From an uncultured Cytophagia bacterium (lineage in GTDB: Bacteria > Zhuqueibacterota > Zhuqueibacteria > Residuimicrobiales > Residuimicrobiaceae): 64,000 nt of DNA. The number at the start of each line of letters is the position of its first letter. Positions within the stretch are counted from its first letter, which is position 1. Below, in pieces: positions 17,254-50,353 of the stretch. A program made the position numbers and the translations under genes. Under the pieces are notes generated by a model. That model saw only the letters and a program-made list of their open reading frames with translations, made no database searches and had not been told where the DNA came from. The stretch is from positions 100,759 through 164,758 of the forward strand of contig CAYLWO010000003.1 of assembly GCA_964387285.1 (NCBI GenBank), in the 5' to 3' direction.

Positions 17254-17254
17254 T

Positions 17255-19063: not shown

Positions 19064-19200
19064 TAGTTTCGGTTTTTACCGGAATTTTCTCCGCTTAAAG
19101 TAGGCGGAACCAAGTGCCAATTAAAAAATATTAGGTTACGTATTGTTCGTATAGCAAACTTTTGGGACAACCTCAAGGAAAATGCAATCGCTCCATTCAG
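19064..19200. repeat. Intergenic repeat family 2, copy 1: a composite of the ccggaa(a/t)tttctccgc-taaag-ggcggaac hairpin module, aattaaaaa(a)tattaggtta, aactttt-gacaacc-caagg, and the 5' module of family 1.
   Basis: Module-by-module similarity to 50173-50322. The core hairpin is also at 36594-36625. Ends with aatgcaatcgctccattcag, which matches 17251-17270. Confidence 0.5.
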
Positions 19201-19288
19201 GTACTTGCCGGTTTTTTAAATTATGAACTGTCACTGGATTTAGTCTGAATTACTCTTCACAGCATAATTTTTATAGGAGGACAAAGCA

Positions 19289-20002
19289 ATGCATCGTTTT
19301 TCACGACTTTCTATCCTGCCTGTGGTTGTCGCTGTTGGTGCGGTGTTGCTTACACAATGCGGCTCATCCAACAAGTTGCACAATTACCAGTTCAACGAAC
19401 GCACCATTGCCACGCAAATGCTGACGCCGCCGGCTCCTATTGTATTCTCTGATTCCTTTATCTGGATCGACAAGGACGATCCCATCGGTTCGGTTCTCCG
19501 CATCGGCACGACCATCGCCAAAGAAATCGAGGCAAGCAAGGTGCGGGCGCGCCTGGACAGCGCCATGCAGCAGGTGGACATTCCGCTGCTGGTAGAGGAC
19601 ATGGTTGCGGAAAAAGGCGCCAAAGTGTTGCGTTGTCAAAATATCGCTGAACCGAAAAAGGCGGATTTTCTTTTAGACATTGACATCAAAAAATACGGCA
19701 TTGAAGCAGAATCGTGGTTTGCCACAACTCGCTTCCGCATGGAGATTGAGGTAACTTTGGTCGACAATGCCGCCACAGCGCGAATCTGGAAGAAAAAAGT
19801 CAAAGAGAACCTGAAGATTGCGCCCACGATTTTCGGCCTCGGTCAGTCGATCAACAATGTGGTCACAGCCGCGGCACTGGCCAACCTGTCTGTAGATGAA
19901 ATCGCCGCAGGATTGCGATCGCTGGCAGAAACCGCCGCTGACCGGATTGTCAAAAAGCTGCAGCAGGATTTGTACAAAGCCAATGAGAAAATCAGGGATT
20001 GA
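19289..20002 (+). CDS. Hypothetical lipoprotein.
   Basis: AGGAGG RBS. Signal ...VLLTQCGSS lipobox. Confidence 0.5.
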   Translation: MHRFSRLSILPVVVAVGAVLLTQCGSSNKLHNYQFNERTIATQMLTPPAPIVFSDSFIWIDKDDPIGSVLRIGTTIAKEIEASKVRARLDSAMQQVDIPLLVEDMVAEKGAKVLRCQNIAEPKKADFLLDIDIKKYGIEAESWFATTRFRMEIEVTLVDNAATARIWKKKVKENLKIAPTIFGLGQSINNVVTAAALANLSVDEIAAGLRSLAETAADRIVKKLQQDLYKANEKIRD

Positions 20003-20173
20003 CCTCACAAGAACTCGAGTCCTATTCTGAGATCATAATTTGGATTTTTCACCCGCCAAAATTCGGAGGAATGACAAACCAACCGGACTTTGCGCAGCTG
20101 TACTGGAGGTATAAATTCCATACCGACTTTGCGGAGACCTGGCCGGTGCGATCCAGGAGAGCAATTCGAGTAT

Positions 20174-21379
20174 ATGAGGATAATGATGAAGAGAGCCCAG
20201 CTTATAATCTGTCTTATTGTTTTAACAGCTTGGAACTGGTTCATCATGACGAGTTGCCGTTCAGGGCATATTGCTGAGCCCGAACAATCAATCGAAATAT
20301 CCATTCCGGCTGTCACCGACGATGGTTGGGAGGTAGCTTCACCGAGCAGCGTTGGTATGGACGCTGTCAAGTTCGGCCAGTTATTTATCCAACTGGATCA
20401 GATTGGCGAACATCGGATTCACAGCATTCTGGTTGTCAGAGATGATAAATTGGTTATTGAAAAATATTATGCCGGTCGCAAATTCAATCTGGGGCAATAT
20501 ACCGGCGGCGTTGGTTATGACCTCAATGACGTACATGTCCTCTGTTCAGCAACCAAAAGCGTCTGTTCAGCCCTTTTCGGCATCGCCATGGATCGCGGAT
20601 ATATACAGTCAATTGAACAAAAGGTTTTTGATTTTTTCCCAGAGTATGCCGACTTGGCAACGCCTGCTAAAGCCGGAATGACGATCAAGCACCTGCTCAC
20701 CATGACCTCCGGCTTTGCCTATGATGACGAGTCTTTGCCTTACACGGATCCCAGAAATGATATGAACCGTTTTTTTACTAGCCGTGATCCGATGTCGTTT
20801 CTGCTTGGGCTGCCGCTGTTTGCCGAACCTGGCGCTGTTTTCGATTACGATAATTGCAACACCAACATTATCGGACAAATCATTTCCAGGGCTGTCGGTG
20901 ATCGTTTGGATGTGTTTGCTAAAGAGGAATTGTTCGATAAACTGGGAATCCGGGAACATCAATGGCAAACGGTTCGCAACAATGTCATTCTCAGCTCCGG
21001 TGATTTGCATCTTCGGCCCAGAGATATGGCAAAATTGGGCCTGCTCTTTCTACACCGGGGCCAATGGAAAGGTACAACCATCATTTCGTCCGCCTGGTGT
21101 GATCGTTCAACCGCGACGATTCTCAATCCCAGTGAATATACAAATGAATTTCAAGCGGTCGACGGTTATGGTTTTCAATGGTGGCAAAAGAACTATACGC
21201 TCAATAAGAAAGTATATCATTCCTATTTTGCCTGGGGATGGGGTGGACAGACCATTATCATGATTCCGCCATTGAATCTGGTAATCGTCACCACAGCCGG
21301 CAACTGGTACGAGCCGGAGATTATCTCTCCGTTTACCCTTGTCGCCGATTATATCATTCCGTCGGTAAAAAGTAATTAA
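20174..21379 (+). CDS. Serine hydrolase of the beta-lactamase fold (class C / esterase-like) family; lipoprotein.
   Basis: S-x-x-K motif LCSATKSVCSALFGIAMDRG. Lipobox ...IMTSCRSG. Start chosen at the MRIMMKRAQL... region. Confidence 0.7.
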   Translation: MRIMMKRAQLIICLIVLTAWNWFIMTSCRSGHIAEPEQSIEISIPAVTDDGWEVASPSSVGMDAVKFGQLFIQLDQIGEHRIHSILVVRDDKLVIEKYYAGRKFNLGQYTGGVGYDLNDVHVLCSATKSVCSALFGIAMDRGYIQSIEQKVFDFFPEYADLATPAKAGMTIKHLLTMTSGFAYDDESLPYTDPRNDMNRFFTSRDPMSFLLGLPLFAEPGAVFDYDNCNTNIIGQIISRAVGDRLDVFAKEELFDKLGIREHQWQTVRNNVILSSGDLHLRPRDMAKLGLLFLHRGQWKGTTIISSAWCDRSTATILNPSEYTNEFQAVDGYGFQWWQKNYTLNKKVYHSYFAWGWGGQTIIMIPPLNLVIVTTAGNWYEPEIISPFTLVADYIIPSVKSN

Positions 21380-21536
21380 ATCAAGCCAGGATCTTAATCC
21401 CAGTGCATGCCTCTGTTCGCCAAAACGGTGTACATGATTTCATCTGGCTAAATAGAGCGATTTTTCATCGTTATTAAGTGTGCAAGTTGGGCTGGTCAAT
21501 CGGTCTGGAATTAAAAATATCAGGATTAACAAAAAA

Positions 21537-24518
21537 ATGAATTTAAAATCAAGTCGTGGTATTTCTGTTTTTATGCTGATCGGATTATCGGCAATGGACG
21601 TCCGTCTACACGCAAAAACGCCCGATGCTCTGGAAGAACGATTTTTGAATCCTCCTGCCATGGTCAAACCCTATGTCTGGTGGCACTGGATGGGTTCCAA
21701 CTTTTCCCAGCAAGGCATTACCAAAGATCTGGAAGCCATGAAGGCTGCCGGTATTGGCGGTGCGACTATTTTCAATCTGAGTTCGGCTGTGCAGGAATCG
21801 CACGCTCCCACGCTGAATAATCCCTGGCCTGAGCAAACCTATCGCAGTCCTGCTTATTGGCAAGCCATGAAACACGCCGTGGCTGAGGCTGCACGGCTGG
21901 GACTTGAAATCGGTCTTCATAACACCGTAGGCTATTCGACAACCGGCGGTCCGTGGATCGACGAAGAGCGCAGTATGCAGCACCTTGTTTGGAGCGATAC
22001 TACTGTAACAGGCGGTCATGAGATTGCGCTGGAATTAAAAAGGCCGGTGCTGATTGCTGACGAAGGTTGGGGAAAGACCGGGCGACAACTTTACTTGTAC
22101 AAAGATGTTGTCGTGCTGGCTGTACCTGCCGGAGAAAAAAAGATAGCGACAAATCAGGTTCGGAACATTACCACACGGTTTGATCCTGTACATGGCTTAA
22201 AGTGGAATGCTCCGCCAGGGAAATGGACTATTTACCGAATGGGACATGCTTCAACAGGCAGACCGCCGCATCCGGTTCCGGATGATCTATTGGGCCAGGT
22301 GTTGGAAGCGGACAAGATGAGCGTCAAGCAAACAACGTTTCATTGGGATCAGGTGCTTGATCCGTTGCAAGCCTATCTTGGCCCCTACCTGGGCAACTCC
22401 TTCAAACACATTTTGATTGACAGTTATGAAGCCGGTGATCAGAATTGGACGCCGGATTTTCGCGAGCAGTTTATCAAGCGCAAAGGCTATGATCCGATTC
22501 CCTGGCTGGTTTCTTTTTGCTTAACGGTCGGCGCCGGCAAAGAGCAGGATCGCCGGATATTGAATGATGCTGAGCAGTCCAGGCGTTTTGATTGGGATTA
22601 TTCTGATGTGATCGCGCAACTGTTTTTTGATAATGGCTGGAAAATCGGCAAAACAAAAGTGGCCCAGGCTGGTTTGTCGCTGCAGTTTGAGCCTTATGGC
22701 GGTCCCTTTGATACGGCGCAAGGCGTTTCCCTGGCTGATTTGCCCATGGCAGAATTCTGGACCGCCGGCGTCGGCGATGTATATCCGGTTGTACCGGCAG
22801 CGGCGAGAGCAAATGGGAAAACTGTTGTCGGCGCAGAAGCGTTTACCGGCCGGCCGGAGAAAAGTCAATACACTGAAGATCCTGCTTTTCTCAAACCATC
22901 AGCTGATAAGGCGTTTGCCGCCGGCATCAACCGCTTGATTCTGCACCATTGGGTGCATCAGCCCTTTGATGATCGCTATCAACCGTGCATGGGCATGGGC
23001 TGGTGGGGAACGCACTTTGGCCGCAATCAGACCTGGCTGAAACCGGCCAAGGCTTTCTTTACCTATTTGGCTCGTTGTCAGGCCTTGCTGCAATACGGCG
23101 AGCAGGCGGCTGATTATCTCTGCGTGGACCGGTTGCAAGGTTTTGCAGATTTAATTTCTACCAGAGATTTTTTAGAATATCAATTTAAAGTTGAAAAGGG
23201 AAAAATCGTTTTACCGAGTGGTCGCAGGTACTGTTTTGCGGCATTCAGCGACAGCGTCATGCTGCCGCAAACGGCGGAAAAAATCAAAGACCTGGTGTCA
23301 CAAGGCGCCATGATTGTTTCACCCAAACCAGTGAAATCACCCAGTCTGCAGGATTATCCGCGCTGCGATGCCAGGGTGCGCAAAACAGCTGCACAGGTCT
23401 GGGGTGAGCATGGACAAAACAGTTTTGGCAAGGGCTTTATATTCACAAAGCTCGATGATGCGGTCCGTAAAAGTGAAATCGCGCCTGATTTTTTTATTGA
23501 ACAGGCAGATTCTCCCGACGATATAAAGATGGTCCACCGCCATGCTGCGGACGCCGACATTTATTTTGTCCTCAATCAGTCCGCACAATTTCAACATCTG
23601 GTGGTTTCTTTTCGTATGTCCGGAAAACAGCCCGAACTATGGCACGCTGAAGACGGCAGCATAATCCCGGCGCCGGTGTGGCGCGAAAATAAAGGCCGGA
23701 CATCGGTCGATTTGACGTTGCATGCCGGCCAGACCATATTTGTGATTTTCTGCAAGCCCGCTTTACCTGTAGACCATCCGGTGCAGCTTGCGGTTATAGA
23801 TGCGGCCTCGTGTTGGCATATGGGCAACGACAAAACGGGACAGGCTTATTTATCCTCTGCCGACTCTTTTTCTGCTAAAGTGGATTATGCATCCGGTAAA
23901 AGTAAAACAGTCGCATTAACGCCAACGGCCCCCATTGAAATATCCGGTCCCTGGCAGGTTGCTTTTACACCACAAGTCGGTCAACGGTTTGAGATCGGTT
24001 TTCCCGTATTGATCGATTTTAGCACGCATGCCGACAAGGCGGTAAACTATTTCGCCGGGACAGCTGTATTTCTTAAAAAAATTTCTATCAAAGCTAGCAT
24101 GCTGAATAAAGACCGGCGCTGGCGTCTGGACTTGGGTGAAATGAACGATATCGCTGAGGTGGTTGTCAATGGAACAAGCCTCGGCGTGCTGTGGTATCCA
24201 CCCTATGCGATCGATGTCACGGCGGCAGTCCAGCCTGGTGAAAATGAAATTAAAATTATTGTGACCACCAACTGGGCAAACAGATTAATCGGCGATGAAC
24301 AGGAACCGGCAGATTTCGCATGGGGCCAGGACCGGGGCGAAAGCATGGGCCGGGCCATGTTGTCCTATCCTGATTGGTTTTTAAAAAATCTGCCTCGACC
24401 CTCGCAGGGCAGAAAAACATTTTCTATCTGGTATTATTATCGTCCAACGAGTCCGTTACAGCCTGCGGGATTGGTGGGGCCGGTGCGGCTGGTTTGTGAA
24501 GCTAGGAGCGATCTTTAG
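21537..24518 (+). CDS. Large secreted glycoside hydrolase, GH106-like (putative alpha-L-rhamnosidase-type) with a C-terminal galactose-binding-like domain.
   Basis: Signal peptide MNLKSSRGISVFMLIGLSA. C-terminal block LDLGEMNDIAEVVVNGTSLGVLWYPPYAIDVTAAVQPGENEIKIIVTTNWANRLIGDE is typical of the jelly-roll domain of GH106/GH2-associated enzymes. Family assignment is tentative. Confidence 0.4.
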   Translation: MNLKSSRGISVFMLIGLSAMDVRLHAKTPDALEERFLNPPAMVKPYVWWHWMGSNFSQQGITKDLEAMKAAGIGGATIFNLSSAVQESHAPTLNNPWPEQTYRSPAYWQAMKHAVAEAARLGLEIGLHNTVGYSTTGGPWIDEERSMQHLVWSDTTVTGGHEIALELKRPVLIADEGWGKTGRQLYLYKDVVVLAVPAGEKKIATNQVRNITTRFDPVHGLKWNAPPGKWTIYRMGHASTGRPPHPVPDDLLGQVLEADKMSVKQTTFHWDQVLDPLQAYLGPYLGNSFKHILIDSYEAGDQNWTPDFREQFIKRKGYDPIPWLVSFCLTVGAGKEQDRRILNDAEQSRRFDWDYSDVIAQLFFDNGWKIGKTKVAQAGLSLQFEPYGGPFDTAQGVSLADLPMAEFWTAGVGDVYPVVPAAARANGKTVVGAEAFTGRPEKSQYTEDPAFLKPSADKAFAAGINRLILHHWVHQPFDDRYQPCMGMGWWGTHFGRNQTWLKPAKAFFTYLARCQALLQYGEQAADYLCVDRLQGFADLISTRDFLEYQFKVEKGKIVLPSGRRYCFAAFSDSVMLPQTAEKIKDLVSQGAMIVSPKPVKSPSLQDYPRCDARVRKTAAQVWGEHGQNSFGKGFIFTKLDDAVRKSEIAPDFFIEQADSPDDIKMVHRHAADADIYFVLNQSAQFQHLVVSFRMSGKQPELWHAEDGSIIPAPVWRENKGRTSVDLTLHAGQTIFVIFCKPALPVDHPVQLAVIDAASCWHMGNDKTGQAYLSSADSFSAKVDYASGKSKTVALTPTAPIEISGPWQVAFTPQVGQRFEIGFPVLIDFSTHADKAVNYFAGTAVFLKKISIKASMLNKDRRWRLDLGEMNDIAEVVVNGTSLGVLWYPPYAIDVTAAVQPGENEIKIIVTTNWANRLIGDEQEPADFAWGQDRGESMGRAMLSYPDWFLKNLPRPSQGRKTFSIWYYYRPTSPLQPAGLVGPVRLVCEARSDL

Positions 24519-24754
24519 CATCCAGACCGAGGCTGTCCCAGAAGGATATTGTTTCAAACAAAGAGATCGCCCGGCATTTATCTGCGCCGCTGGGTATTGC
24601 AGCGGAATATTTATCCCGTAATCTGCGCAAGCGAGCGGAACCAAGCGGCTGTCGCTGACGCCGTTGGGACGAATGTCCCAATCCAATTGACGCACCGGAG
24701 GAATCTCCGGTGCGATCTTGGGTCTTCAAGACCTGTGAGGTCTGGGAGATCGAT

Positions 24755-28716: not shown

Positions 28717-29535
28717 TCACAGTTGGAGATAATACCCATCCATTAAAAGCTGCAAGAACCATTCACTGGGATCCGCGTCATCCTTTTTAATGTGCCAGTG
28801 AATCTGCTGGTCGCCGTTCAAGGCGACAATTGTATTGGCAAGCGTGCTTCCTTCTCCTGTATAATTGCCGAGACCGTCATCGCCAATATCCAAATAGCAT
28901 GTTTGATTGTCGACTGTGTTCCAATTCGCCGGATCAGTGGAGAGATATAACCGTATGACCGGAGAACCTGACTGTGATGTCAACCGGGCATACAAAATCG
29001 CTCTAATCTGAATATGAGTGGCATTTGACGGCAACGAGTGACCGATCAACGTTTCTATATCCAAAGTCGCCCCCTCATCGGCACTGGTGGATAACGTCGT
29101 CACATTGCGAAGCGTCGCTGAAAACGGGACGAAAACAAGGGAACCGGGAATAGGGAGAGGAATGCGTACGGTGTTGCCTCTGGCAATCGACAAGAGAGCG
29201 CCGGGTTGCCCGTCTCGATTCAATGAAAGGGTCTGGTTGTCCGTGTCAATGAATTGGGGCTGCGTGCTCAAATTGCCCACAGCGTCGGCGATTAGCATCT
29301 GTTGATGACCGTTTGCCAGGTCGGAAATGCGCACATTGCCGGCCACGTCTAAACTGGCTTGCGGTAAGGTCGTTCCGATGCCCAACCTGCCGTCATTGGT
29401 CATGCGGACGGTTTCGCTTTGTGAATTGAGAATTACTAATTGCGCGAAAGACGGACGAAAAGTCATCAGGCAACTTAACGCCAGACCATAATAAAGGGAT
29501 GAGATTCTCAAATATCGATTTGTATAAAGTACCAT
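28717..29535 (-). CDS. Small secreted protein, paralog 1 of 3 (tail-fibre-like N-terminal motif family).
   Basis: Signal peptide. Conserved G-LGIGTT-PQA-LDV-GN-RI block and a DNQTLSL...GNTV block shared with the next two genes. Confidence 0.5.
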   Translation of the reverse strand: MVLYTNRYLRISSLYYGLALSCLMTFRPSFAQLVILNSQSETVRMTNDGRLGIGTTLPQASLDVAGNVRISDLANGHQQMLIADAVGNLSTQPQFIDTDNQTLSLNRDGQPGALLSIARGNTVRIPLPIPGSLVFVPFSATLRNVTTLSTSADEGATLDIETLIGHSLPSNATHIQIRAILYARLTSQSGSPVIRLYLSTDPANWNTVDNQTCYLDIGDDGLGNYTGEGSTLANTIVALNGDQQIHWHIKKDDADPSEWFLQLLMDGYYLQL

Positions 29536-29601
29536 CTCAAACTCCTGGTTGTTTCAATATGAATTTTGAACAGTTTGCTGTTCATGAAAAAGTTGACATA
29601 T

Positions 29602-30396
29602 CTAATACGCGACAAAATAACCTTCCAGATATACGTCCATCCTCAGGAAAAAATTATGACCCATTGTGTTGTCGACATTGTCAGATTCTACCGAGTATTG
29701 AAATTCATAGTTGGCCGCGGATTCGAGAACGACGGTAGCTGTTTGTGAATTCTCCCAGCAATCGCTATCATAAACCTGATGGCCGGCATCGATGTATAAC
29801 ACGCGTGTATCATCGGTAAATGAGCCGGAACGATCGATCCAGACATTTAAGATGGGATTATCGTATGTAAGTTTCCTTACATGAGCGTTAATACGAAGCA
29901 TGAGATGCTGGGTGTTGTCGGGAAAGTTGAATCCAGGTATTTTTTCCTGCAACCAGGTCAGCACATTGAATGTGCCTTGCTTTTTGTTGATGGCGTAAAG
30001 TTGTCCAAGATATCGACGAAGTGGAAAAAAAGCTCTGGCTCCTGTTGGTGCTGTGGGCAGCACGACGGTGTTTCCGTTGGAAATGCTTAGATTTTGTCCG
30101 TTTATGGATAATGTCTGTTGATCCGTATCGACGGGAATGGTCTCAACAGACAACAGTCCATTGGTCTCAACCGTTACCATGCGCTGCGGCGATGAACTCA
30201 GGCTGGAGATGCGCGCATTGCCATTCACATCCAATTGCGCATTTGGTTGCGTGGTGGCCAATCCCAGTCGGCCTTGCTCCGAGATGCGGACAATCTCGGC
30301 GCCCGAACCATTCCAAATTCGAATCTGCGCAATGCCGGCAACAACCGCACCGAGGAGCAGAATAATATTGATTGTTTGTTTTAGTAGGTTCAGCAT
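29602..30396 (-). CDS. Small secreted protein, paralog 2 of 3.
   Basis: GRLGLATTQPNAQLDVNGNARIS and DQQTLSINGQNLSISNGNTVVLP. C-terminus LEGYFVAY. Confidence 0.5.
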   Translation of the reverse strand: MLNLLKQTINIILLLGAVVAGIAQIRIWNGSGAEIVRISEQGRLGLATTQPNAQLDVNGNARISSLSSSPQRMVTVETNGLLSVETIPVDTDQQTLSINGQNLSISNGNTVVLPTAPTGARAFFPLRRYLGQLYAINKKQGTFNVLTWLQEKIPGFNFPDNTQHLMLRINAHVRKLTYDNPILNVWIDRSGSFTDDTRVLYIDAGHQVYDSDCWENSQTATVVLESAANYEFQYSVESDNVDNTMGHNFFLRMDVYLEGYFVAY

Positions 30397-30421
30397 GTTG
30401 ATACCCCTAAGTAGATTTCAC

Positions 30422-31228
30422 TCAGTTTAATTGTTTGTAATAGCCATCGATGTACACCATGGCAAAATACTTGCACGCCGCGTTGCCGGAACCCGACTTG
30501 CGAAATGAAAAGTTGAGGGTCTTGCTGTCTCCCAAAGCGATGATCTTGGAACAGCTGGTGTCTTTTTCCGGCGTCCTGAGATTATGGACGCCGTCTGCCG
30601 GATAACCATAATCAACATAAGCGATCATTTTTTCCAGAGAGATGGCGACATCCGGAGCGGTCATGACGTACAGCTGAAAATTGGGATTTGCCGCGCCTGT
30701 CGCGTCACCGTCAGCGATTACGCGCAACAGGATATGACTGGCATCAGCAGGGAGCAGCGCTCCCAAGATGTCACCTACATTAACGGAAAAATTAAAAGGA
30801 GTTGTATCCCTGGTTTCCGATTGATAGAGAAATTTACGCAACGGGTAAAATAGCAAAGCCGGTGCTGAGGGCATGCCCAGGCTCACTTCATTCCCGTCGG
30901 TAATACCGAGCATGTAGCCCAGATTGACGTCCGAACGAAGGTAGAGAGTCTGGTCGTCTGTATTTTGTGGAATGGCCATGGCCGACAATTCACCATTGGC
31001 ATCGGCGATCACCATTCTTTTTGCACCGCCCAGCAGATTCTGTACACGCATGGTGCCGACCACATCAAGACGCGCTTGCGGGTTTGTGGTCCCCAGTCCC
31101 AGAGAACCTGAGGAGGTGATCACTCCCAAGTTGCTTGCTCCTTCCTTGAACAATATTTGGGCAAAGAGATATTGAGTTACCAGCAACTTGAGCAAGAGAA
31201 TCAATATCAAGTTTTTCATTTTTAACAT
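30422..31228 (-). CDS. Small secreted protein, paralog 3 of 3.
   Basis: GSLGLGTTNPQARLDVVGTMRVQ and DDQTLYLRSDVNLGYMLGITDGNEVSLG. C-terminus IDGYYKQLN. Confidence 0.5.
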   Translation of the reverse strand: MLKMKNLILILLLKLLVTQYLFAQILFKEGASNLGVITSSGSLGLGTTNPQARLDVVGTMRVQNLLGGAKRMVIADANGELSAMAIPQNTDDQTLYLRSDVNLGYMLGITDGNEVSLGMPSAPALLFYPLRKFLYQSETRDTTPFNFSVNVGDILGALLPADASHILLRVIADGDATGAANPNFQLYVMTAPDVAISLEKMIAYVDYGYPADGVHNLRTPEKDTSCSKIIALGDSKTLNFSFRKSGSGNAACKYFAMVYIDGYYKQLN

Positions 31229-32916: not shown

Positions 32917-32951
32917 GTCACGTTCTCCTCCCGTATTGTTTTTTTAAAACC

Positions 32952-36430: not shown

Positions 36431-36478
36431 TTTTTCATTATCCTGCTTGCAGGATATCGTTGATTTTACAATGTAAAA

Positions 36479-36511
36479 AACGTCGAATATCAGGTTCGGC
36501 GTTTTTTTTTT
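36479..36511 (+). terminator. Rho-independent terminator.
   Basis: AACGTCGAA-tatcaggt-TTCGGCGTT stem (one G-U pair) followed by T10. Confidence 0.7.
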
Positions 36512-36593
36512 GAGATTTTCAAAAAGATCGCTCAGCTGATTCCTGTCGAGGGAAAGTTGAAGAGGTCGTCCAAAAGAGACTTGCGCATATAGT

Positions 36594-36625
36594 GCCGGAA
36601 ATTTCTCCGCCTAAAGGCGGAACTA
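36594..36625. repeat. Intergenic repeat family 2, copy 2 (core only).
   Basis: gccggaaatttctccgcctaaaggcggaacta is 32/32 identical to 50187-50218. Confidence 0.5.
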
Positions 36626-36710
36626 GCTGCTCATTACGACTTTGAACGGGGAGGAAGAACGTCCTGTCCCAACTCTGGCGCCGGAGGATTTACCGGCGCG
36701 ATCATGATCC

Positions 36711-37712: not shown

Positions 37713-37719
37713 AATCGTC

Positions 37720-40443
37720 TCAGATAACGAATTGAATTTTATCCTGCGGCGTACGGCAATCCATATCCAGGCCGCGATCACGATGATCCGCGATTTCCGC
37801 AGCAATGCCGATGGCGCGACCATACAGGAATTGTGTAAACGATAAATCCTGCACCATGCTGATGGTGATGCGTTTGGAATGCAAATCCTTCCACACCAGT
37901 TTTAAAATAATCACGGCCAGCACCGCATCGATATTGACGCAAAAGACGTTTTTGGTGACGCCTTCATTGAAAAGCTCTTTGACCAACAGTCGGTAAAACT
38001 CGTGAAAGGCGTTATAGATGCCGCGTTGCGCCATTTCGTCATAGATGAATTTTTCGCGCGGATCGATGTTGACGGCATTGCCTTTAAAAACCGGATGGTT
38101 GATGCAGGGAATGCGTTTGATCGGTTGCTCGGTTTGTTCTTTTTCCGTTTTTTTATAATCGCGATAATGGCAGGCCGCATCATGGGCGAGCTTTTTTAAA
38201 TCGAGATTATGGTTGCGGTCGCCCGGGTCTGCCTCGATCGTGGGGAAATTCTCCAGCAGAAAAGCAATGGCCTCAAATCCATTGCCGCCATGGGCCAGCC
38301 CCGTGCTGGTCAGAAAACCGAGAAACGCCGTGGCAATGTGATTGCGCGCACTGACCGATTGCTTGGCCCCTTTGGCCGACAGGGTGCCGGGTCCGTTGGT
38401 CAGGGTCAATCCGATCAGGGACTGGAATTCGAACAGCTCGGTCTCATTCGGCTTGCGATTGAACAAGATCGCAAAAGCGTTTTCGGTAAAACTGTTGTTC
38501 AGGTTGTCGATTTTGGCGTCTATCAGTTCCCGCCAGTATTGGTTCTGTTTACGATCAATAACCGAATAAGCCACAATGCGGCTGATGATGTAAAAATAGG
38601 TTACCGCGTCCTCGACCACCTGTCGACTGATTCGTTTTTCCAGCATGGGCTTCCAGAACAGCGCCACGGCAATGCCGCCCATCAAAAACTCGTATTGATC
38701 ACGAATGTCTTTATTTTTCTCTTCTGCCAGATGAATGATGTGCTGCAATACCCGGATGGGAAAAGATTTCTTGGACGATTTTTTGATCTCTTTAAGAAAA
38801 AGCTCGGAAACGTCGGTTTTGCGTATGGGTTCATCGGTGAGCAAATGCACATCAAGATATTCATCCAGGGCCTGCGGAAACGCTTTGGTCACATCGCTGA
38901 TTTCGAATTCGCGGATCAAATCGATTAGGAAACAGGCCGCATCGCGCGCTTTGGCCAGCATTTGTCGATTGCCGATAAGGGCGATCTGCGAGCCGATGTA
39001 GGCGTTGGGCGTGCAACCGTTGCTGCGCGCCACATCCACGAGGTCCATGCGTCGCTCGTCCATTTTCAAAAACAGATTCAGCAAGAGATTAATGGTGGCT
39101 ACATCGTCCGCTTCCGGCATCACCTTGGCCAGACTGAAATAAATGTTCTCTTCCATGGAATGTTTGGCCAGTTCCAGAATGGACCGGCCATGCAATTCCG
39201 AAACCTGGGTCTTGGGATCCATGCGCGAGGCGCCGGATTTGTCCGCCATATTCTGTCGTAAAAAATGCGCGCCCACCTGTTTGTTGATCTCTTTGATCTG
39301 CTGATCATAGGGCGGCATGGCAGTTACCACCGGCATATCCAATTCTTTGGGCATTTTTATCCAGGAATCGCTGATCCATAGTTTCAGCGACAGATCGCCC
39401 TGGCTTTTAAAATCGCTCTCTTCGCCCATAGCCGCAAACACGGCTTTCATGGCATCAGGAAAGTGCTGGATGGAAGCCACGCGCACGCCACGCTTGCCCA
39501 CCTCTATCCTGGCCGGATTGAAAACCGGCACGCCGAAATAGTCGTCGAACCACTTTTCTTTGGATTCGGCGTCGTCGCCGCTGCCGGCCAATGCACCGGC
39601 ATGGCCGCACGAGCGCTGAATGTCTTTTTTCCAGCGACCGGTAACGCAAACCACAATGGGTTTGTTAAAACCGAACCGTCGTTCCGCAATCCAGTCCAGC
39701 GCCATTTTTTCATAATAACCGCCCGGCTCCACATAGAGCGCCACGGCCTTGGTGCGCGGATCGTTTTGTGCGGCATATAAAAACTCGGGCAGGGCGAAAT
39801 GAATGTAAATATCCTTGCCGGAACTCACCGCTGTGCTGATGCCGAATCCGGCAGAGCGCAGGTACTCGGCAATGGTGGTGGTGAAATTGCCGGAATTGGA
39901 ATGCAACGCCACCGATCCTTTTACCAGCGCTTCTGCGGGATTGTCGCCGCCCAGGGCGCCGCCGACGCGTACGTGATCCCACACATTGGCCACGCCCAGA
40001 CAATTGGCGCCGATGATGTCTACCCCTGCCTCCTGACAGACAAAGCGACAATTGCGCGAATCCCGGGCCGGCACTTTTTCGGTGACGATGACCACTCGTT
40101 TGAGTTTATCGTTATAATAGGCCAGTTCGGCAACCGCCTGACTCACCGCCAACGGCGGCAAATAGATGACGCCGATGTCAAAAAAAATGCCTTGTTCCAT
40201 GACATCTCGAATACTGCTGTACACCGGGATGGGACCGATCCTGGTCTCCAGTTCGCCTTTGCGTCCATATTGTACGCCGGCAACAATATTGCCGCCGCTG
40301 TATTCGTGCGACACCGGTGTGACCTTGCGGCTCTCGTTGCCCAATATATTGATGACGCACACGCGCGAATCCCGCGTGGCCATTTCTTCCAGAGAATGAA
40401 CGCCGAGAAAGTAAGGAAACGGTTTGGTCTTTTGTGGTCTCAT
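37720..40443 (-). CDS. ATP-citrate lyase alpha-like subunit: SucD-like CoA-binding/ligase domain fused to a citrate-synthase-like domain (AclA-like, about 908 aa).
   Basis: Start chosen at MRPQKTKPFPYFLG (ATG 40443) to avoid overlap with aclB. Phospho-His loop SCGHAGALAGSGDD (compare SucD MGHAGAI). C-terminal STGLAHGGNGFEAIAFL resembles the citrate synthase GPxHGGANE motif. Confidence 0.6.
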   Translation of the reverse strand: MRPQKTKPFPYFLGVHSLEEMATRDSRVCVINILGNESRKVTPVSHEYSGGNIVAGVQYGRKGELETRIGPIPVYSSIRDVMEQGIFFDIGVIYLPPLAVSQAVAELAYYNDKLKRVVIVTEKVPARDSRNCRFVCQEAGVDIIGANCLGVANVWDHVRVGGALGGDNPAEALVKGSVALHSNSGNFTTTIAEYLRSAGFGISTAVSSGKDIYIHFALPEFLYAAQNDPRTKAVALYVEPGGYYEKMALDWIAERRFGFNKPIVVCVTGRWKKDIQRSCGHAGALAGSGDDAESKEKWFDDYFGVPVFNPARIEVGKRGVRVASIQHFPDAMKAVFAAMGEESDFKSQGDLSLKLWISDSWIKMPKELDMPVVTAMPPYDQQIKEINKQVGAHFLRQNMADKSGASRMDPKTQVSELHGRSILELAKHSMEENIYFSLAKVMPEADDVATINLLLNLFLKMDERRMDLVDVARSNGCTPNAYIGSQIALIGNRQMLAKARDAACFLIDLIREFEISDVTKAFPQALDEYLDVHLLTDEPIRKTDVSELFLKEIKKSSKKSFPIRVLQHIIHLAEEKNKDIRDQYEFLMGGIAVALFWKPMLEKRISRQVVEDAVTYFYIISRIVAYSVIDRKQNQYWRELIDAKIDNLNNSFTENAFAILFNRKPNETELFEFQSLIGLTLTNGPGTLSAKGAKQSVSARNHIATAFLGFLTSTGLAHGGNGFEAIAFLLENFPTIEADPGDRNHNLDLKKLAHDAACHYRDYKKTEKEQTEQPIKRIPCINHPVFKGNAVNIDPREKFIYDEMAQRGIYNAFHEFYRLLVKELFNEGVTKNVFCVNIDAVLAVIILKLVWKDLHSKRITISMVQDLSFTQFLYGRAIGIAAEIADHRDRGLDMDCRTPQDKIQFVI

Positions 40444-40505
40444 GAAAAAATTTACCCTTGCAAAGGTTGCTGATTTGATGAAATACGAATTTTGTGTTCG
40501 CTTTT

Positions 40506-41795
40506 CTAAATTAAAACCGGATTTTCGCTCAAGCGCTGACTCCAGTTTATATAGTCTGTCCTGCCTATTTCTCGCCACCAGCTATCCACGCGTTTGGCAT
40601 ATTCCAGCACCTGGATCATCGATGTGTCGTAACCGAACATCTTGTAGGGCAACTTTAAGGTGTCCAGAATGTCCTTGCCGTAAAACATGCCCTTGATCAG
40701 ATTGGGACCGCCGCGTCCCACAACGGTATAAATGGGAGTTTTACCGTGATGCGACATGTGGTCGCGTAAAGCGTCAAAAATCCCTTTGAAGGTGACATAG
40801 ATATCCGTGTTGTTGGCTTTGCCGCCGATGATGAGGAGAACACTGGCTTTGTTGAGCCAATGCTTGAAAACAATGCGGCTGATTTCGTACATTTTTTCAT
40901 AAGGCGGATTGCCGCCGAAATCGGACGCAAAAATAGCGGACGCGCCCAAAGTTTCTGTGGCCGCTGAATTGGCGCCGCCGCCGAACATAAAAGGCATGAT
41001 GCTGCCGTTGGGATTGAGTTCCAGCACGTCACTCTGTCCCTGATAGGTGCGCAGCTGATTGATTTCGGATTCGAACGGAGAGATATCGGATTGAAAAATG
41101 GTTGCCGGCAATCCCAGCCGCTTCCAGGCAGGATTGTCCTGATCGAACTGCGCTTTGAGATCACAGGCTATGGGGATCAGTTTGCCGTCGCTTTTCATCA
41201 TGCGAATGGGATTGATTTCCAGCGTGGTCAGGCCATAGTTGTCGTACAGACTCCACAGCTTGGGCAGATTTTGCACCAGCGGTGAGATATACGCTTCCGG
41301 ACAACCGGTATCGGTCAACGCATTGGTGATGTCAAAGGATTTCAAGCCGATAAAAGGATCGATCCAGATGACCTGCTTTTTATCAAAGGACAGGCTTTCG
41401 ATGTCCATGCCGCCAAATGGTGAAATGGTAAAGATGGGTTTACGGTGGGCCGTGGAAGCTGCGATACTAAAGTACACCTCAATCTCGGAGGGGATGAACG
41501 CTTCAAAAGTCACGCCGTTGGCATAGACGGTCTTGCTGCCGTATTGATGGCCGGCAAAGTACAACTCTTTTTTGGCCTGTAAGGCATCGAGCACATTGTC
41601 GACGATGCGCACCAGTCCGGCTTTGCCCTTTTTACCTACGCCGCCTGAAAAAAAAGGCTTCACTACCAGTTTTTTATGCTGAGTAAGAAGCCTTTGAATT
41701 TGTTCCTTGGTGGCGTCGGCTGTCAGAAATGGGGCATAGGGAAACTCGACCAGATCCAGCAGCTGAGCGCCGTACTTGAGTCCGGAGATTTGCAT
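40506..41795 (-). CDS. ATP-citrate lyase beta-like subunit (SucC-like ATP-grasp, AclB-like).
   Basis: LVVKPFFSGGVGKKGKAGLVRIV aligns with ACLY/AclB LVVKPDQLIKRRGKLGLV. Full SucC-like length, immediately upstream of the SucD+CS fusion. Confidence 0.65.
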   Translation of the reverse strand: MQISGLKYGAQLLDLVEFPYAPFLTADATKEQIQRLLTQHKKLVVKPFFSGGVGKKGKAGLVRIVDNVLDALQAKKELYFAGHQYGSKTVYANGVTFEAFIPSEIEVYFSIAASTAHRKPIFTISPFGGMDIESLSFDKKQVIWIDPFIGLKSFDITNALTDTGCPEAYISPLVQNLPKLWSLYDNYGLTTLEINPIRMMKSDGKLIPIACDLKAQFDQDNPAWKRLGLPATIFQSDISPFESEINQLRTYQGQSDVLELNPNGSIMPFMFGGGANSAATETLGASAIFASDFGGNPPYEKMYEISRIVFKHWLNKASVLLIIGGKANNTDIYVTFKGIFDALRDHMSHHGKTPIYTVVGRGGPNLIKGMFYGKDILDTLKLPYKMFGYDTSMIQVLEYAKRVDSWWREIGRTDYINWSQRLSENPVLI

Positions 41796-43177: not shown

Positions 43178-43199
43178 GAATCAAACCTGTACGGGGTTT

Positions 43200-43246: not shown

Positions 43247-43261
43247 CAGTCAGTAAATTGT

Positions 43262-45339: not shown

Positions 45340-45469
45340 GGGCTATTACACGATGAAGCGAATTGAAACATATTGCTTCCTGAATAGCAGGCAATTTCGT
45401 GTTGTGGGTAATGTGTTTCTGCCAGATTTCTGATTAGAAAAATTTTAATGATGCCGGATCCGCCTCGAA

Positions 45470-46150: not shown

Positions 46151-46219
46151 GAGAACTCCGTAAAAAAAACAATATACACAGAAAAAAAGCCTTGACAAAC
46201 AGGAAAAAATACCATAAAT

Positions 46220-46250
46220 TTAACCAATTAGTTAAACTAAATAGTTAGTT
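46220..46250. promoter_or_regulatory. Candidate TetR operator: imperfect palindrome TTAACCAATTAGTTAA followed by a TAGTTAGTTAA repeat upstream of the TetR gene.
   Basis: 14/16 self-complementary positions, 30 nt upstream of the start codon. A location typical of autoregulatory TetR boxes. Confidence 0.35.
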
Positions 46251-46268
46251 AAAAACACGGAGACGACC

Positions 46269-46910
46269 ATGCCTGTTAATCAGGTCGGCGGCGAATCCAC
46301 GCGGGAGAAAATAAAAACCGCGGCGGCCGAAATATTCATTGAAAAGGGCTATGCAGCGGCGCGCATGCAAGAGATCGCAGATCGGGCGCAGGCCAATAAG
46401 GCCATGATCTATTACTATTTTTCTTCCAAAGACGCCCTGTTCGAGTCCATTATCCGCGAGGCGTTTGAAGAACTGTTCAGCATGTTTACCGGTCTCCAGC
46501 AAGGCCCGGAATGCGATCTGCCGACTCTGATCGCCAGACTGGTGCACACCCATTTTCATTTCCTGCAAACGCATCCGCAATTGCCGCGTCTGATTGCCCG
46601 TGAATTGAACAGTGATAACCCGATACCGCAAAAAGTGTTGACCGACGTTATCAGGCGCCACGGCAAGGAACGATTAGAAAGTCTGCAAAATATGTTGAGC
46701 CGGGCCATAAGCGACGGCCGGCTGCGATCTGTCGACGTCAAACACACTTTGTGGAACATTGTCTCCTTGAATGTTTTTACTTTTATTGTTTCCCCGGTAT
46801 TTCAAAACGTTTGGCCGGAAGAGTACAAGAATTCTGATCGCTTGATGAAAAAACGGGAAAAAGCCATTGTGGATTTGATTTTGTACGGCATTCTGCCGCG
46901 TAAAGGATGA
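46269..46910 (+). CDS. TetR/AcrR-family transcriptional regulator.
   Basis: HTH TREKIKTAAAEIFIEKGYAAARMQEIADRAQANKAMIYYYFSSKDALF. Confidence 0.8.
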   Translation: MPVNQVGGESTREKIKTAAAEIFIEKGYAAARMQEIADRAQANKAMIYYYFSSKDALFESIIREAFEELFSMFTGLQQGPECDLPTLIARLVHTHFHFLQTHPQLPRLIARELNSDNPIPQKVLTDVIRRHGKERLESLQNMLSRAISDGRLRSVDVKHTLWNIVSLNVFTFIVSPVFQNVWPEEYKNSDRLMKKREKAIVDLILYGILPRKG

Positions 46911-46918
46911 GGAAGGTC

Positions 46919-48262
46919 ATGGAAAAGAAAATTTTGATAATCCTGGCGTGCGTGTCGGCATTACCGGTCCGAGGGCAGATCACTTTACCGGATTTGGTGC
47001 ACCAGGCGTTGGCCAACAATCCAGGCCTGGCGCTGGGGCAGGCTGATTCATTGAACGCCGCGGAAGAGGTGACGCAAGCGCGTGCGTCCCGTTTGCCTTC
47101 CCTGGATTTCAGCGGTTCCTATCGCCGGCAAAGCACGGTGCCTGAAATAAAAATCGCACCGGTCACGTTGCCGTTCGGCGCCGGCATCTATTCTCCGATT
47201 CCAGGCGGCGCCATGCAAATGGGCACACTGGATAATTTTGATTTCCGCTTGACCGTTGCGCAACCGCTGTTTACCGGTTTTCGTCTCGCGCAAAAAGTGG
47301 CTGCCAGCCGAGCTAACCAGGATGGGAAAGCAGCAGATCTGCGTCGGCAACGCTGTGAGTTGATCGGCCAGGTCGAGAAAGCCTATGGTCAGGTTTTAAA
47401 AACCTTAAAATATGTGGACATTGCCCGTACCAGTCGCGACCAGGTCGCTGCGCATGTACGGGACGTGAAAAAAATGGTGGACCAGGGCATATTAAAAAGG
47501 GAAGAAGTCCTTAAAACCGACGTACGACTCTCCGAAGCAGAGTTGGCCATTGTGCAGGCGGAGAACGGCCTGGCCATGAGTCGCAGTGTGCTGGAAAATC
47601 TGCTGGCGAAAAAGCTGCCGACCGATGCTCCGTTCAGCGCTATGCCGACGCCTGATGCTTTTGATCTCAACAAAGAGACTACATTAGAAACGGCTTGGGC
47701 CAATCGTGCAGAATTACAGACATTGCATTCGGCGCAACAGGCCAGCCGCTCCGTCACCCGCATGGCCAAAGGCGGTCGTCTGCCCAATCTGGCAGCCTTT
47801 GGTTCTGTCGGTTACGGCAAACCGGGTCTGGATATGCTCAAGAAAGAGTGGATGGACTATTGGTTGGTCGGCGTGGGCATGGAATGGAATATCTGGAATT
47901 GGGGCAAAACCCGCTCGCAGATCCAGCAAACGGAAATCAAGCAGCGCGCCCTTGCCCACACGGAACGACAGTTGCGCGATGCCATTGAATTGGATGTGAC
48001 GCAAGCTTTGCTGCAAGTGCAGGAAGCGATGCAACGCCGTGATTTATGTGTTACACTGACCAGCCAGGCGGAAGAAAGTTTTCGCGTGGCGGAGAAACAG
48101 TATTTGCAGGGCATGGCGACACACACCGAATATTTTGACGCCCAATCCGCTTTGACCCGCGCCCGGTTGGGCCAGGCTCAGGCGGATATCGATTATAATT
48201 TGGCTCTGGCAAATCTTCGTCGCGCTCAAGGCGTGAATGATAAACCTTATGTCACTCATTGA
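46919..48262 (+). CDS. TolC-family outer-membrane efflux protein.
   Basis: Signal peptide. Two tandem coiled-coil / beta-barrel repeats of the TolC type (e.g. ...LTVAQPLFTGFRL..., ...WLVGVGMEWNIWNWGKT...). Confidence 0.7.
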   Translation: MEKKILIILACVSALPVRGQITLPDLVHQALANNPGLALGQADSLNAAEEVTQARASRLPSLDFSGSYRRQSTVPEIKIAPVTLPFGAGIYSPIPGGAMQMGTLDNFDFRLTVAQPLFTGFRLAQKVAASRANQDGKAADLRRQRCELIGQVEKAYGQVLKTLKYVDIARTSRDQVAAHVRDVKKMVDQGILKREEVLKTDVRLSEAELAIVQAENGLAMSRSVLENLLAKKLPTDAPFSAMPTPDAFDLNKETTLETAWANRAELQTLHSAQQASRSVTRMAKGGRLPNLAAFGSVGYGKPGLDMLKKEWMDYWLVGVGMEWNIWNWGKTRSQIQQTEIKQRALAHTERQLRDAIELDVTQALLQVQEAMQRRDLCVTLTSQAEESFRVAEKQYLQGMATHTEYFDAQSALTRARLGQAQADIDYNLALANLRRAQGVNDKPYVTH

Positions 48263-48276
48263 AATAGAGGAATTCT

Positions 48277-49164
48277 ATGAAGCATGGCTTGATATCTTTG
48301 GGAGTGGCGGTTGTGCTGCTCATGAGCGGTTGCTCGGATAAAAAGAACGATGCAACATCCGGCTCCGGCACCCTGGAGGCGACCGAGGTGCTCTTGAGCA
48401 GCAAAACGGCCGGCACGGTCGTCAGTATGCAGGTGCGGGAAGGCGATCTGGTCGCCTCCGGTCAGATCGTAGCGCTGATCGACAGCGAAAAAGTCTTTTT
48501 GCAAAAACAGCAATTATTGGCCGGCATGCAGGAACTGCGCTTTAACATGATCAATGCCAAGCGAGCCGTCCAACTCAGCCAGGATCATTTCGACAACGTT
48601 GCCAAAAAATTTCAACGCATCAAAATACTGTGGCAGGACAGCAGCGCCACGTTACAGCAATTTGAAGATATCGAAACCGCCTATAAGGCAGCCTCCACCC
48701 AATTTGAAAATAGCCGCACGGCTTATGACGCCTTGACAGCGCGACAGTCGCAATTGCAGGCCCAGCTCGCTTTGCTTAGCAGCCAATTGGCGGATTGTCG
48801 CGTAGTGGCGCCTATCGTGGCTACGGTGTTGGAAACCTATATTGAAAAAGGTGAGATCGCCAGACCGGCCGGTCCGATTGTTAAACTGGCGGACTTGACG
48901 CGCATGTGGATTAAAATTTATGTGACCGAAGCCGAACTGGGGCGCATCAAAATCGGTGCAACGGCAGAGGTGCAGATCGCTTCTCAGCCGGAAAAAAGGT
49001 TCCCGGGACAGGTTTCCTGGATATCCCCGCGCGCTGAATTCACGCCGAAAAATGTGCAGACCAAAGAGGCGCGCGCCGATTTGGTTTACGCCGTTAAAAT
49101 AACCACAGCGAATCCGGACGGCGTGTTGAAAATCGGCATGCCGGCAGATGTGTATTTGCGCTGA
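48277..49164 (+). CDS. HlyD-family periplasmic adaptor (membrane fusion protein).
   Basis: Lipobox LLMSGCSDKK. Biotin-lipoyl-like hairpin and a coiled coil. C-terminal ...GMPADVYL. Confidence 0.7.
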   Translation: MKHGLISLGVAVVLLMSGCSDKKNDATSGSGTLEATEVLLSSKTAGTVVSMQVREGDLVASGQIVALIDSEKVFLQKQQLLAGMQELRFNMINAKRAVQLSQDHFDNVAKKFQRIKILWQDSSATLQQFEDIETAYKAASTQFENSRTAYDALTARQSQLQAQLALLSSQLADCRVVAPIVATVLETYIEKGEIARPAGPIVKLADLTRMWIKIYVTEAELGRIKIGATAEVQIASQPEKRFPGQVSWISPRAEFTPKNVQTKEARADLVYAVKITTANPDGVLKIGMPADVYLR

Positions 49165-49242
49165 ATGGTCCATGTTTTATAAACAACCAACAGGGATTGA
49201 ACAGATTGGGATTGTTTGTTAATTTTTTCCGGGCCGTATGCA

Positions 49243-50157
49243 ATGAATAAACTTATTGAAATACAGGGTCTGTACAAATCATTTGGCGATACCACCGCCG
49301 TCGCCGGCATGGATTTGTGCGTTTATGAAGGCGAGATGCTGGGATTGATCGGCCCTGATGGCGCCGGCAAAACCACCACCTTGCGCATATTATGCGGTTT
49401 GTTGCGTCCTGATCAGGGCGCTGCGACGATGGCCGGCTGGCAGGTTGCTACCGAAATGAAAAAAATCCGTCACATCATCGGCTATATGCCGCAACGTTTT
49501 TCCCTGTATCCGGATTTAACCGTAGCGGAAAACCTGCGCTTCTTCAGTGACCTGTTCCAGGTAAGCAAACAAGAACGTGAATCGCGATTGCAGAGATTGC
49601 TGGAATTCAGCCGTCTGGGCCCTTTTGCCGATCGCCAGGCCCATGCCTTGTCCGGCGGCATGAAACAGAAACTGGCCTTGTCCTGTACGTTGATTCATAC
49701 GCCCAAGATTTTGCTTTTGGACGAACCGACCACCGGCGTGGATCCGGTTTCTCGCCGGGAATTCTGGGACATCCTCGCCGAGCTGCGCAGCCAGGGCGTG
49801 ACCATCGTCGTCACCACGCCGTACATGGATGAAGCGGCGCGCTGCGACCGTGTGGCGTTCATTCACCGCGGCAAGATACTGTCCGTGAGCAGACCGGATG
49901 AAATAGCAAAAATGTACGCCGGCACTTTGCTGGAAATTCGTTGTCGGAATAATGTTGCCGCTGCTGCAAAGTTGACCGCCAGCGGCCGATTCGCTTCCGT
50001 GCAAATTTTCGGCGACCGACTGCATGTCGCCGGATCCGAATCGGCGGAATGTATGCAAATGATGGTGCAGGAACTCCTCGGTCCGGAAGATGATGCTTTA
50101 TCAATCAAGAAAATTCCGGCAGGCATCGAGGACGTATTTGTCGAAATGCTCAAGTAA
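49243..50157 (+). CDS. ABC transporter ATP-binding protein (corresponds to the N-terminal nucleotide-binding domain of the fused E. coli YbhF).
   Basis: Walker A GPDGAGKTTT, signature LSGGMKQK, Walker B LLLDEPTTGVD. Confidence 0.8.
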   Translation: MNKLIEIQGLYKSFGDTTAVAGMDLCVYEGEMLGLIGPDGAGKTTTLRILCGLLRPDQGAATMAGWQVATEMKKIRHIIGYMPQRFSLYPDLTVAENLRFFSDLFQVSKQERESRLQRLLEFSRLGPFADRQAHALSGGMKQKLALSCTLIHTPKILLLDEPTTGVDPVSRREFWDILAELRSQGVTIVVTTPYMDEAARCDRVAFIHRGKILSVSRPDEIAKMYAGTLLEIRCRNNVAAAAKLTASGRFASVQIFGDRLHVAGSESAECMQMMVQELLGPEDDALSIKKIPAGIEDVFVEMLK

Positions 50158-50172
50158 AGCAACCTTTGTAGG

Positions 50173-50322
50173 TAGTCACGGCTTTAGCCGGAAATTTCTC
50201 CGCCTAAAGGCGGAACTACATGCTAATTAAAAATATTAGGTTATTTTTTGTTCCCCTATTAGTGTTCTTGCTGCTTATTTAATACTGTTAACAAATAGCG
50301 AACTTTTTAGACAACCGCAAGG
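50173..50322. repeat. Intergenic repeat family 2, copy 3 (composite). Fills the 196-nt gap between the two ABC ATPase genes.
   Basis: The core is 32/32 identical to 36594-36625. The modules ctaattaaaaatattaggtta and aactttttagacaaccgcaagg match 19116-19138 and 19156-19177. Confidence 0.5.
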
Positions 50323-50353
50323 TTCAAGGTGCTCGATTTAACCAAGAAAAAAT

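Follow-up and report, generated by a model that had tools for sequence, protein, structure and literature searches.

We identified a family of small palindromic repeats, here designated family 2, in a 64,000-nt stretch of DNA (positions 100,759 to 164,758 of contig CAYLWO010000003.1, hereafter the window) from the genome assembly of an uncultured Cytophagia bacterium. Three copies were found, all of them intergenic: copy 1 (within 18981-19288), copy 2 (within 36431-36710) and copy 3 (within 50158-50353). Family 2 is probably a lineage-specific, non-coding and non-autonomous interspersed repeat of a KSB1-related bacterium, of the MITE (miniature inverted-repeat transposable element) kind or of the kind formed by repetitive extragenic palindromic (REP) elements and their hairpin-forming doublets (REPINs), and duplicative spread is the best reading of its three copies.

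The identity among the copies is far above chance, which supports a duplicated repeat. A 32-nt core, GCCGGAAATTTCTCCGCCTAAAGGCGGAACTA, is identical at all 32 positions between copy 2 (36594-36625) and copy 3 (50187-50218), and 93% identity is maintained over 43 nt (self-BLAST E = 5e-11). The corresponding segment of copy 1 (19078-19111) agrees with the core in 27 of 34 alignment columns and differs from it by four substitutions and an insertion of 3 nt, and copies 1 and 3 are 81% identical over 70 nt (self-BLAST E = 9e-6). Direct reading and alignment thus confirmed the core matches given in an earlier note on this DNA, and also its hairpin TCCGCC-TAAA-GGCGGA, which is present at 36606-36621 and 50199-50214, exactly twice in the window, compared with 0.47 near-matches expected. 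Two further segments that the note had listed as modules shared by copies 1 and 3, AAAAATATTAGGTTA (at 19124 and 50229) and AACTTTT..GACAACC.CAAGG (at 19157 and 50301), were recovered as well and exceeded the shuffle expectation. In pairwise local alignments, copies 1 and 3 have in common a first hairpin (hairpin 1) and the core and, to the right of these, an AT-rich middle block and then a right block; a left part (GAGGTYRTCCAAAAG...ATAGT), not mentioned in the earlier note, is common to copies 1 and 2, and copies 2 and 3 have only the core region in common. The number of copies stood: a nhmmer profile built from the three of them detected no fourth one in the window.

The three copies are found in unrelated gene contexts, with functionally unrelated neighbouring genes, a pattern that favours duplication over common ancestry of the loci. 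Each copy is co-oriented with the gene immediately upstream (3/3). Copies 1 and 3 are also located upstream of same-strand genes, at distances of ~180 nt (copy 1) and ~140 nt (copy 3) from the downstream start codon. Copy 2 is flanked by convergent genes; it follows a terminator-like hairpin (36475-36507) and precedes a convergent gene of the URO-D family, as the earlier note had described it.

Additional evidence comes from the genes that flank copy 3, both of which encode ABC ATPases on the plus strand (Pfam ABC_tran). The product of the upstream gene, ATPase 1 (49243-50157), has an intact C-terminus; its exact 304-aa sequence is on record, and its alignment with the long open reading frame (ORF) of relatives reaches residue 313. 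The product of the downstream gene, ATPase 2 (50354-51103), has an intact N-terminus, relatives aligning from residues 1-7. We compared 80 loci containing relatives of ATPase 1, of which 76 also had ATPase 2 downstream, and estimated the intergenic distances. The gap was 64 nt or less in 56 of these 76 loci, 31 of which had overlapping or abutting genes; in 17 loci it exceeded 1.2 kb and the gene order was different, and in 3 loci it was 112-513 nt, each with its own insert. In the closest relative of the operon, a KSB1 metagenome-assembled genome (MAG) with 65% and 72% amino acid identity to the two ATPases, the genes overlap in an ATGA stop/start. In the window the gap measures 196 nt, most of it copy 3, and both proteins are full-length. 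Comparison of these loci therefore shows copy 3 to be a derived insertion at a junction that is empty in relatives, whose two genes are coupled in translation or separated by a few bases. The earlier note had placed copy 3 in a gap splitting a normally fused double-ATPase gene; the location in the gap is correct, but the fusion is not, as two separate genes, mostly abutting or overlapping, were found throughout (fused in 0/76 loci). Presence/absence was seen for copy 3 only, against distant relatives; we found no usable empty site for copy 1, where homologues of the downstream lipoprotein were at most 51% identical and lacked synteny.

The same junction carried other inserts in three relatives: one in a Calditrichaceae MAG with a perfect palindrome of 23 bp (locus L018, 6949-7230), one with a 10-bp-stem hairpin in Winogradskyella (L051, 6898-7009) and, in a Prolixibacteraceae MAG (L054, 6973-7332), a complete gene for a 119-aa GxxExxY (PDDEXK_3) protein, 41% identical to the GxxExxY protein encoded in the window. 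The last case is direct evidence that small nuclease-like genes insert as mobile units. All three inserts differ from one another and are unrelated to copy 3; evidently, this junction tolerates small selfish DNA and has acquired it repeatedly and independently.

The region is also present in the Logan assemblies of runs SRR12133404 and SRR12133403, which independently confirmed the copies: copy 1 is complete in them, and copies 2 and 3 are represented by their left halves as far as the core that they share. In both of the latter cases the contigs stop within this core, as expected for a 32-nt exact repeat at k = 31. Such breaks, together with the fact that the MAG assembler had to resolve the repeat, are what an assembly artefact would have in its favour. 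An artefact or chance similarity is nevertheless an extremely unlikely explanation, given the BLAST E-values cited above, an independent Logan contig that spans copy 1 completely, and the genes on either side of copy 3, which are adjacent partners in 59 of the 76 related operons. This conserved operon order validates the join at copy 3 in the assembly. The Logan contig at copy 3 ends 8 nt sooner than sharing with copy 2 alone predicts, from which we infer that the sample may contain another copy or variant.

The alignments show that family 2 represents one element of ~142 nt, which is full-length in copy 1 only, and that copies 2 and 3 are deletion and insertion derivatives of it. In the pairwise and multiple alignments, copy 1 (19034-19175, plus strand) consists, in order, of a left terminal inverted repeat (TIR), a left spacer, hairpin 1, a spacer, hairpin 2, the AT-rich middle block and a right TIR. 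The left TIR (TGAGGTTATCCAAAAAG, 19034-19050) is a 17-nt arm with 88% complementarity to the right TIR (CTTTTGGGACAACCTCA, 19159-19175), the latter lying within the right-hand module of the earlier note. Hairpin 1 is CGGT-TTTT-ACCG (19070-19081) and hairpin 2 is TCCGCTTA-AAG-TAGGCGGA (19090-19108), both given on the plus strand, and the predicted RNA fold of the whole element is closed by its ends (z = -3.3). Copy 2 (36562-36636, plus strand), a decayed copy, aligns with copy 1 from GAGGT..TCC through ..ATTA; what remains of it is the left TIR (36562-36578), together with the left spacer and with the core, which includes hairpin 2 (36606-36621). Its hairpin 1 is without the left arm, and neither a middle block nor a right TIR could be recognised. 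Copy 3 (50165-50322, plus strand) comprises the palindromic core, the middle block and the right TIR (50303-50318); its left TIR is missing or vestigial, and it has 47 nt (50254-50300) in place of 8 nt in copy 1, a net gain of 39 nt. Block order is identical in all copies. A ((copy 2, copy 3), copy 1) descent with three deletions and one insertion of 39 nt net explains this pattern; the proposed history involves 5' loss and a gain in copy 3, and right-side loss and a ~10-nt deletion in hairpin 1 in copy 2.

Several features of the element are those of TIR-type MITEs, including the 17-nt TIRs at 88% in copy 1, of which copies 2 and 3 have one end each, a length of ~142 nt (MITEs range from about 50 to 500 bp) and the lack of conserved coding capacity. 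No ORF is conserved across the copies. A coding hypothesis based on a 20-codon ORF in copy 3 (50220-50282), which would encode a very hydrophobic peptide (MLIKNIRLFFVPLLVFLLLI), was rejected, the ORF being broken in copies 1 and 2. Two candidate traces of insertion were likewise discarded. A CAACC repeat at copy 3 (50160 and 50312), considered as a target-site duplication, lies inside the right TIR. The 17-mer CAACCTTCGCAAGGTTC (63837-63853), which corresponds to the joined flanks of copy 3 (50160-50166 plus 50316-50325) and was considered as an empty-site footprint, is marginal: an equally long joined match was obtained in 19 of 500 random controls.

The central part of copy 3 forms an imperfect palindrome with 28-nt arms (50165-50192 and 50199-50226), composed of hairpin 1 (50179-50190, CGGC-TTTA-GCCG) and the inverted hairpin 2 (50199-50214), closed by GTAGT/ACTAC. 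Two alternative folds are available to it, either two small hairpins with complementary loops (TTTA and TAAA) or one long hairpin. The long hairpin is far more stable than shuffled sequences on both strands. As DNA, it has a predicted energy of -13.5 kcal/mol (z = -4.0; z = -4.3 for the other strand); as RNA, the values are -26.3 kcal/mol (z = -5.1) for the plus strand and -23.8 kcal/mol (z = -4.8) for the minus strand. Both hairpins are present in copy 1, where the long form is weak, and hairpin 2 only is present in copy 2; the feet of the palindrome are ATAGT/ACTAG in copy 2 and ATAGT/ACCAA in copy 1. The core that the earlier note had called invariant is the spacer plus the right half of this REPIN-like doublet. 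It is indeed identical in copies 2 and 3, but it has diverged in copy 1 and is part of the larger palindrome. Both hairpins have been kept in the diverged copy 1 through concerted changes: in hairpin 1, both arms differ between copies 1 and 3 (CGGT/ACCG and CGGC/GCCG) with pairing retained, and in hairpin 2 a C-to-T change and the 3-nt insertion extend the stem to 8 pairs, one of them G.T/G.U.

These observations bear on two functional explanations. According to the first, a dimeric regulator or a nucleoid protein would bind the perfect 16-bp palindrome, TCCGCC-TAAA-GGCGGA, as duplex DNA, and the three loci would form one regulon. The perfect 6-4-6 symmetry in two copies and the location of copies 1 and 3 upstream of same-strand genes would agree with an operator, but the 3-nt insertion in copy 1 falls between the half-sites; it destroys their spacing while lengthening the hairpin, as would suit a hairpin but not an operator on duplex DNA. 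Copy 2, between convergent genes and behind a terminator, has no promoter to control, the distances from copies 1 and 3 to the downstream start codons differ, and the homology reaches 70-140 nt beyond a site of operator size. We consider this explanation very unlikely.

The second possibility is that the conserved part of family 2 is a functional structured RNA kept by selection, acting as a stabiliser between cistrons or in a 3'-UTR, as a processing site or as a small RNA, the spread of the repeat being secondary or a means of dissemination. Several findings are in its favour: the shared orientation with the upstream genes; the somewhat better folding of plus-strand RNA (in copy 1, z = -3.0 compared with -2.0, and in copy 3 the energies given above); the changes in copy 1 that keep pairing, including G.U pairs valid only on plus-strand RNA; and the identity of the core in copies 2 and 3 next to less conserved bases. 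On the other hand, no Rfam family was matched at threshold and the weak matches were inconsistent between copies, the core is not flanked by promoter-like or terminator-like sites, copy 2 is situated past a terminator-like hairpin and has only half the structure, and the neighbouring genes have no functional relationship. Moreover, with three sequences, covariation is inseparable from palindrome-templated change. An RNA function kept by selection is thus possible but doubtful as the explanation for the family.

A different view was taken in the earlier note, which treated family 2 and a second repeat of the window, family 1, as one pool of about five independent and freely recombining modules. 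Family 1 (10826-10903 and 17272-17348; 80% identical over 70 nt) has the motif CATGTCATTGCGA...GGAGTGAAGCAATCC, and its outer arms, ATTGC/GCAAT, point to a hairpin into which an inner stem has been inserted; it has no Rfam match and resembles a short repeat found across many bacterial phyla. As the note had reported, copy 1 of family 2 runs into a family-1 module: it is followed after 2 nt by a 20-nt block, AATGCAATCGCTCCATTCAG (19181-19200, plus strand), that matches the 5' edge of family 1 (17252-17271) at 19 of 20 positions, and the family-1 body is absent after it. A 23-nt block just upstream of copy 1 (19005-19027, minus strand) is the reverse complement of 63854-63876 at 22 of 23 positions. 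These two blocks, and a weak left-end-like motif (three mismatches) that precedes family 1 at 10755-10770, are the evidence for shuffled modules. However, block order in family 2 is constant, the descent proposed above suffices with its three deletions and one insertion, a single junction joins the two families, and extra motif matches, once the family itself is removed, number 3 compared with 0.84 expected and are not above the shuffle expectation. Clustering or nesting of small repeats is a sufficient explanation that accounts for the 20-nt and 23-nt blocks as well as module shuffling does. We regard a combinatorial set of modules as quite unlikely and replace it with one ~142-nt element, linked to other repeats by two short pieces only.

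Other repeat-like sequences were observed in the window. The intergenic segment 24610-24660, GCGAGCGGAACCAAGCGGCTGTCGCTGAC, has an 11-nt match to copy 1 (GCGGAACCAAG) and arms like those of family 1 (GCGAGCGGA...TCGCTGAC), and may be a decayed repeat remnant. Near the end of the window, a GxxExxY/PD-(D/E)XK_3 gene (63285-63671) has behind it a long-hairpin repeat of ~95 nt in two copies, at 63716-63814 and at 63903-64000; these are 77% identical, and the first folds with z = -5.9. The 23-nt block found inverted beside copy 1 sits between these two repeats, and the region 63285-64000 runs ~96 nt past the end of the window in contig L091. A 28-nt piece of the ~95-nt repeat also has a match in an unrelated metagenome contig (L096/L097), immediately downstream of a GxxExxY gene with 85% identity, and this hairpin may travel with the GxxExxY gene. 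The same contig (L096, 11872-13617) encodes bAvd and an adjacent reverse transcriptase, which looks like a diversity-generating retroelement and is unrelated to family 2.

We further searched for family 2 outside the window. BLASTN of the repeat blocks against ~1 Mb of relatives' loci gave no match beyond the source organism's own contigs, and plasmid and phage collections contained no match to the element. The Rfam scan suggested in the earlier note did not assign the repeat to an RNA family: Rfam 15 gave 0 matches in the window at the gathering threshold, and permissive scans gave weak matches that differed between copies. No promoter-like or terminator-like sites were found flanking the cores, and no insertion sequence (IS) or transposase with ends matching family 2 was detected in the window. 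The 64-kb window also contains no tRNA or tmRNA genes, and a tRNA or tmRNA origin of the repeat was rejected. The core was searched as the pattern TTTCTCCGCNTAAAGN{0,2}GGCGGAAC, whose sole match in JGI metagenomes was inside a 1205-aa ORF and was judged a chance match.

A number of results weigh against a mobile, interspersed repeat. The core pattern had 0 matches in 185,579 species-representative (GTDB) genomes and 0 in IMG/VR, and a six-frame chimeric translation used as protein query had none at E <= 10. A Pfam scan of the ~45 ORFs of the window identified no transposase, REP-associated tyrosine transposase (RAYT) or IS. The copy number known so far is three, within 64 kb only, and copies 2 and 3, each lacking one end, would be immobile as TIR elements. 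No target-site duplication was found flanking copy 1 or copy 3; the mobility suggested in the earlier note is partly supported, by the copy 3 gap, which is absent from most related operons. The empty sites themselves come from relatives no closer than 65-72% amino acid identity, and no presence/absence polymorphism of the copies was seen between the two sequencing runs. In addition, the cores of copies 2 and 3 are identical at 32/32 positions, yet the adjacent 15 nt match only at 12/15, which hints at selection or gene conversion and not plain decay.

If family 2 is an interspersed repeat, it would have been spread by an enzyme encoded elsewhere in the genome. One candidate is a DDE transposase that would recognise the inverted ends, corresponding to the MITE route; another is an enzyme of the Y1/RAYT type, which would recognise single-stranded hairpins and act on the palindrome. 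At the junction of the two ATPase genes, insertion of copy 3 would uncouple their translation and place a stable hairpin of ~20 bp into the polycistronic mRNA. REP, ERIC and Correia elements act likewise in other bacteria. Effects of intercistronic hairpins on mRNA have been described for Correia and ERIC elements (PMC10969869). A bolder proposal, which we consider unlikely, is that the palindromic doublet, with GTAG feet in the best-preserved copy, is the substrate of an undescribed RAYT-like hairpin transposase of the KSB1 lineage, that copies have been co-opted as intercistronic RNA, and that copy 3 sets the ratio of the transporter halves.

Known repeat systems offer several parallels. Neisseria Correia repeat enclosed elements (CREE) and enterobacterial repetitive intergenic consensus (ERIC) sequences, also called intergenic repeat units (IRU), are characterised as non-coding intergenic elements of ~100-200 nt with inverted ends that fold back and with length variants arising by internal deletions or insertions (PMC10969869, PMC2649163). 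They are often located within operons and co-transcribed, their hairpin altering mRNA processing (PMC10969869, PMC2649163). Family 2 is similar to them in size, non-coding nature, intergenic location, inverted ends, length variants and insertion in an operon. It differs in having no visible target-site duplication, no sequence similarity to any known element and no promoter-like site, and in that two of its three copies lack one end.

REPINs are inverted doublets of REP elements, whose singlets are decayed remnants (PMC3337134), and RAYT requires a 5' GTAG (GT[A/G]G) and an imperfect hairpin (PMC3479197). Like REP elements and REPINs, including the bacterial interspersed mosaic elements (BIMEs) of E. 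coli, family 2 is extragenic and, clearly in copy 3, forms an imperfect palindrome made of two inverted hairpins with a short spacer, which can fold into one long hairpin, and copy 2 is similar to a REP singlet derived from a doublet by decay. GTAG is present at both feet of copy 3, but this feature is not conserved in copies 1 and 2 (ATAGT, CTAGT, TTGGT). The hairpins of family 2 are also much shorter than those of REPINs (stems of 4-6 bp), and its homology extends ~80 nt beyond the palindrome and includes TIRs, which REPINs lack. The 64-kb window has no RAYT and contains three copies of family 2; REP systems have tens to hundreds of copies per genome and a RAYT gene of their own with the repeats on either side.

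In pneumococci, the small repeats BOX, RUP and SPRITE are clustered and nested in one intergenic region (PMC10969869). This mosaic resembles the arrangement at 19.0-19.2 kb, where the inverted 23-nt block, family 2 and the edge of family 1 follow one another, although there is no sequence relationship and the A-B(n)-C module grammar of BOX was not seen in family 2.

The window comes from an uncultured, KSB1-like bacterium of the FCB group, as judged from the flanking proteins, whose nearest named homologues are proteins of KSB1 and Calditrichaeota MAGs. Its content is that of an ordinary chromosome, with a flat GC content of ~50% and genes for glycoside hydrolases, a molybdopterin oxidoreductase, URO-D-type methyltransferases, ATP-citrate-lyase-type domains, an OEP/HlyD/ABC efflux operon and an Mla system. 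The ATP-citrate-lyase-type domains (ATP-grasp_2, Citrate_bind, Succ_CoA_lig and Citrate_synt) are encoded by two neighbouring minus-strand genes (37720-41795), which may be relevant to the carbon metabolism of the lineage. Three tandem minus-strand ORFs of 272, 264 and 268 aa at 28717-31228 have no Pfam match and may constitute a lineage-specific paralogous family.

Family 2 is new by sequence, but of an already known MITE/REP-like kind. Its description puts on record a family of small palindromic repeats from an uncultured and little-studied KSB1-like phylum and provides a clean example of an element inserted precisely where two genes are translationally coupled. An over-reading of this DNA is corrected as well: the ATPase genes do not represent a split fusion, and the supposed modules are mostly decay products of one element. 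Repeats of this type break short-read assemblies, as seen in the two runs, and are usable as strain markers. Unless a new enzyme that mobilises the repeat or a function as RNA comes to light, the finding is an ordinary one for a bacterial genome.

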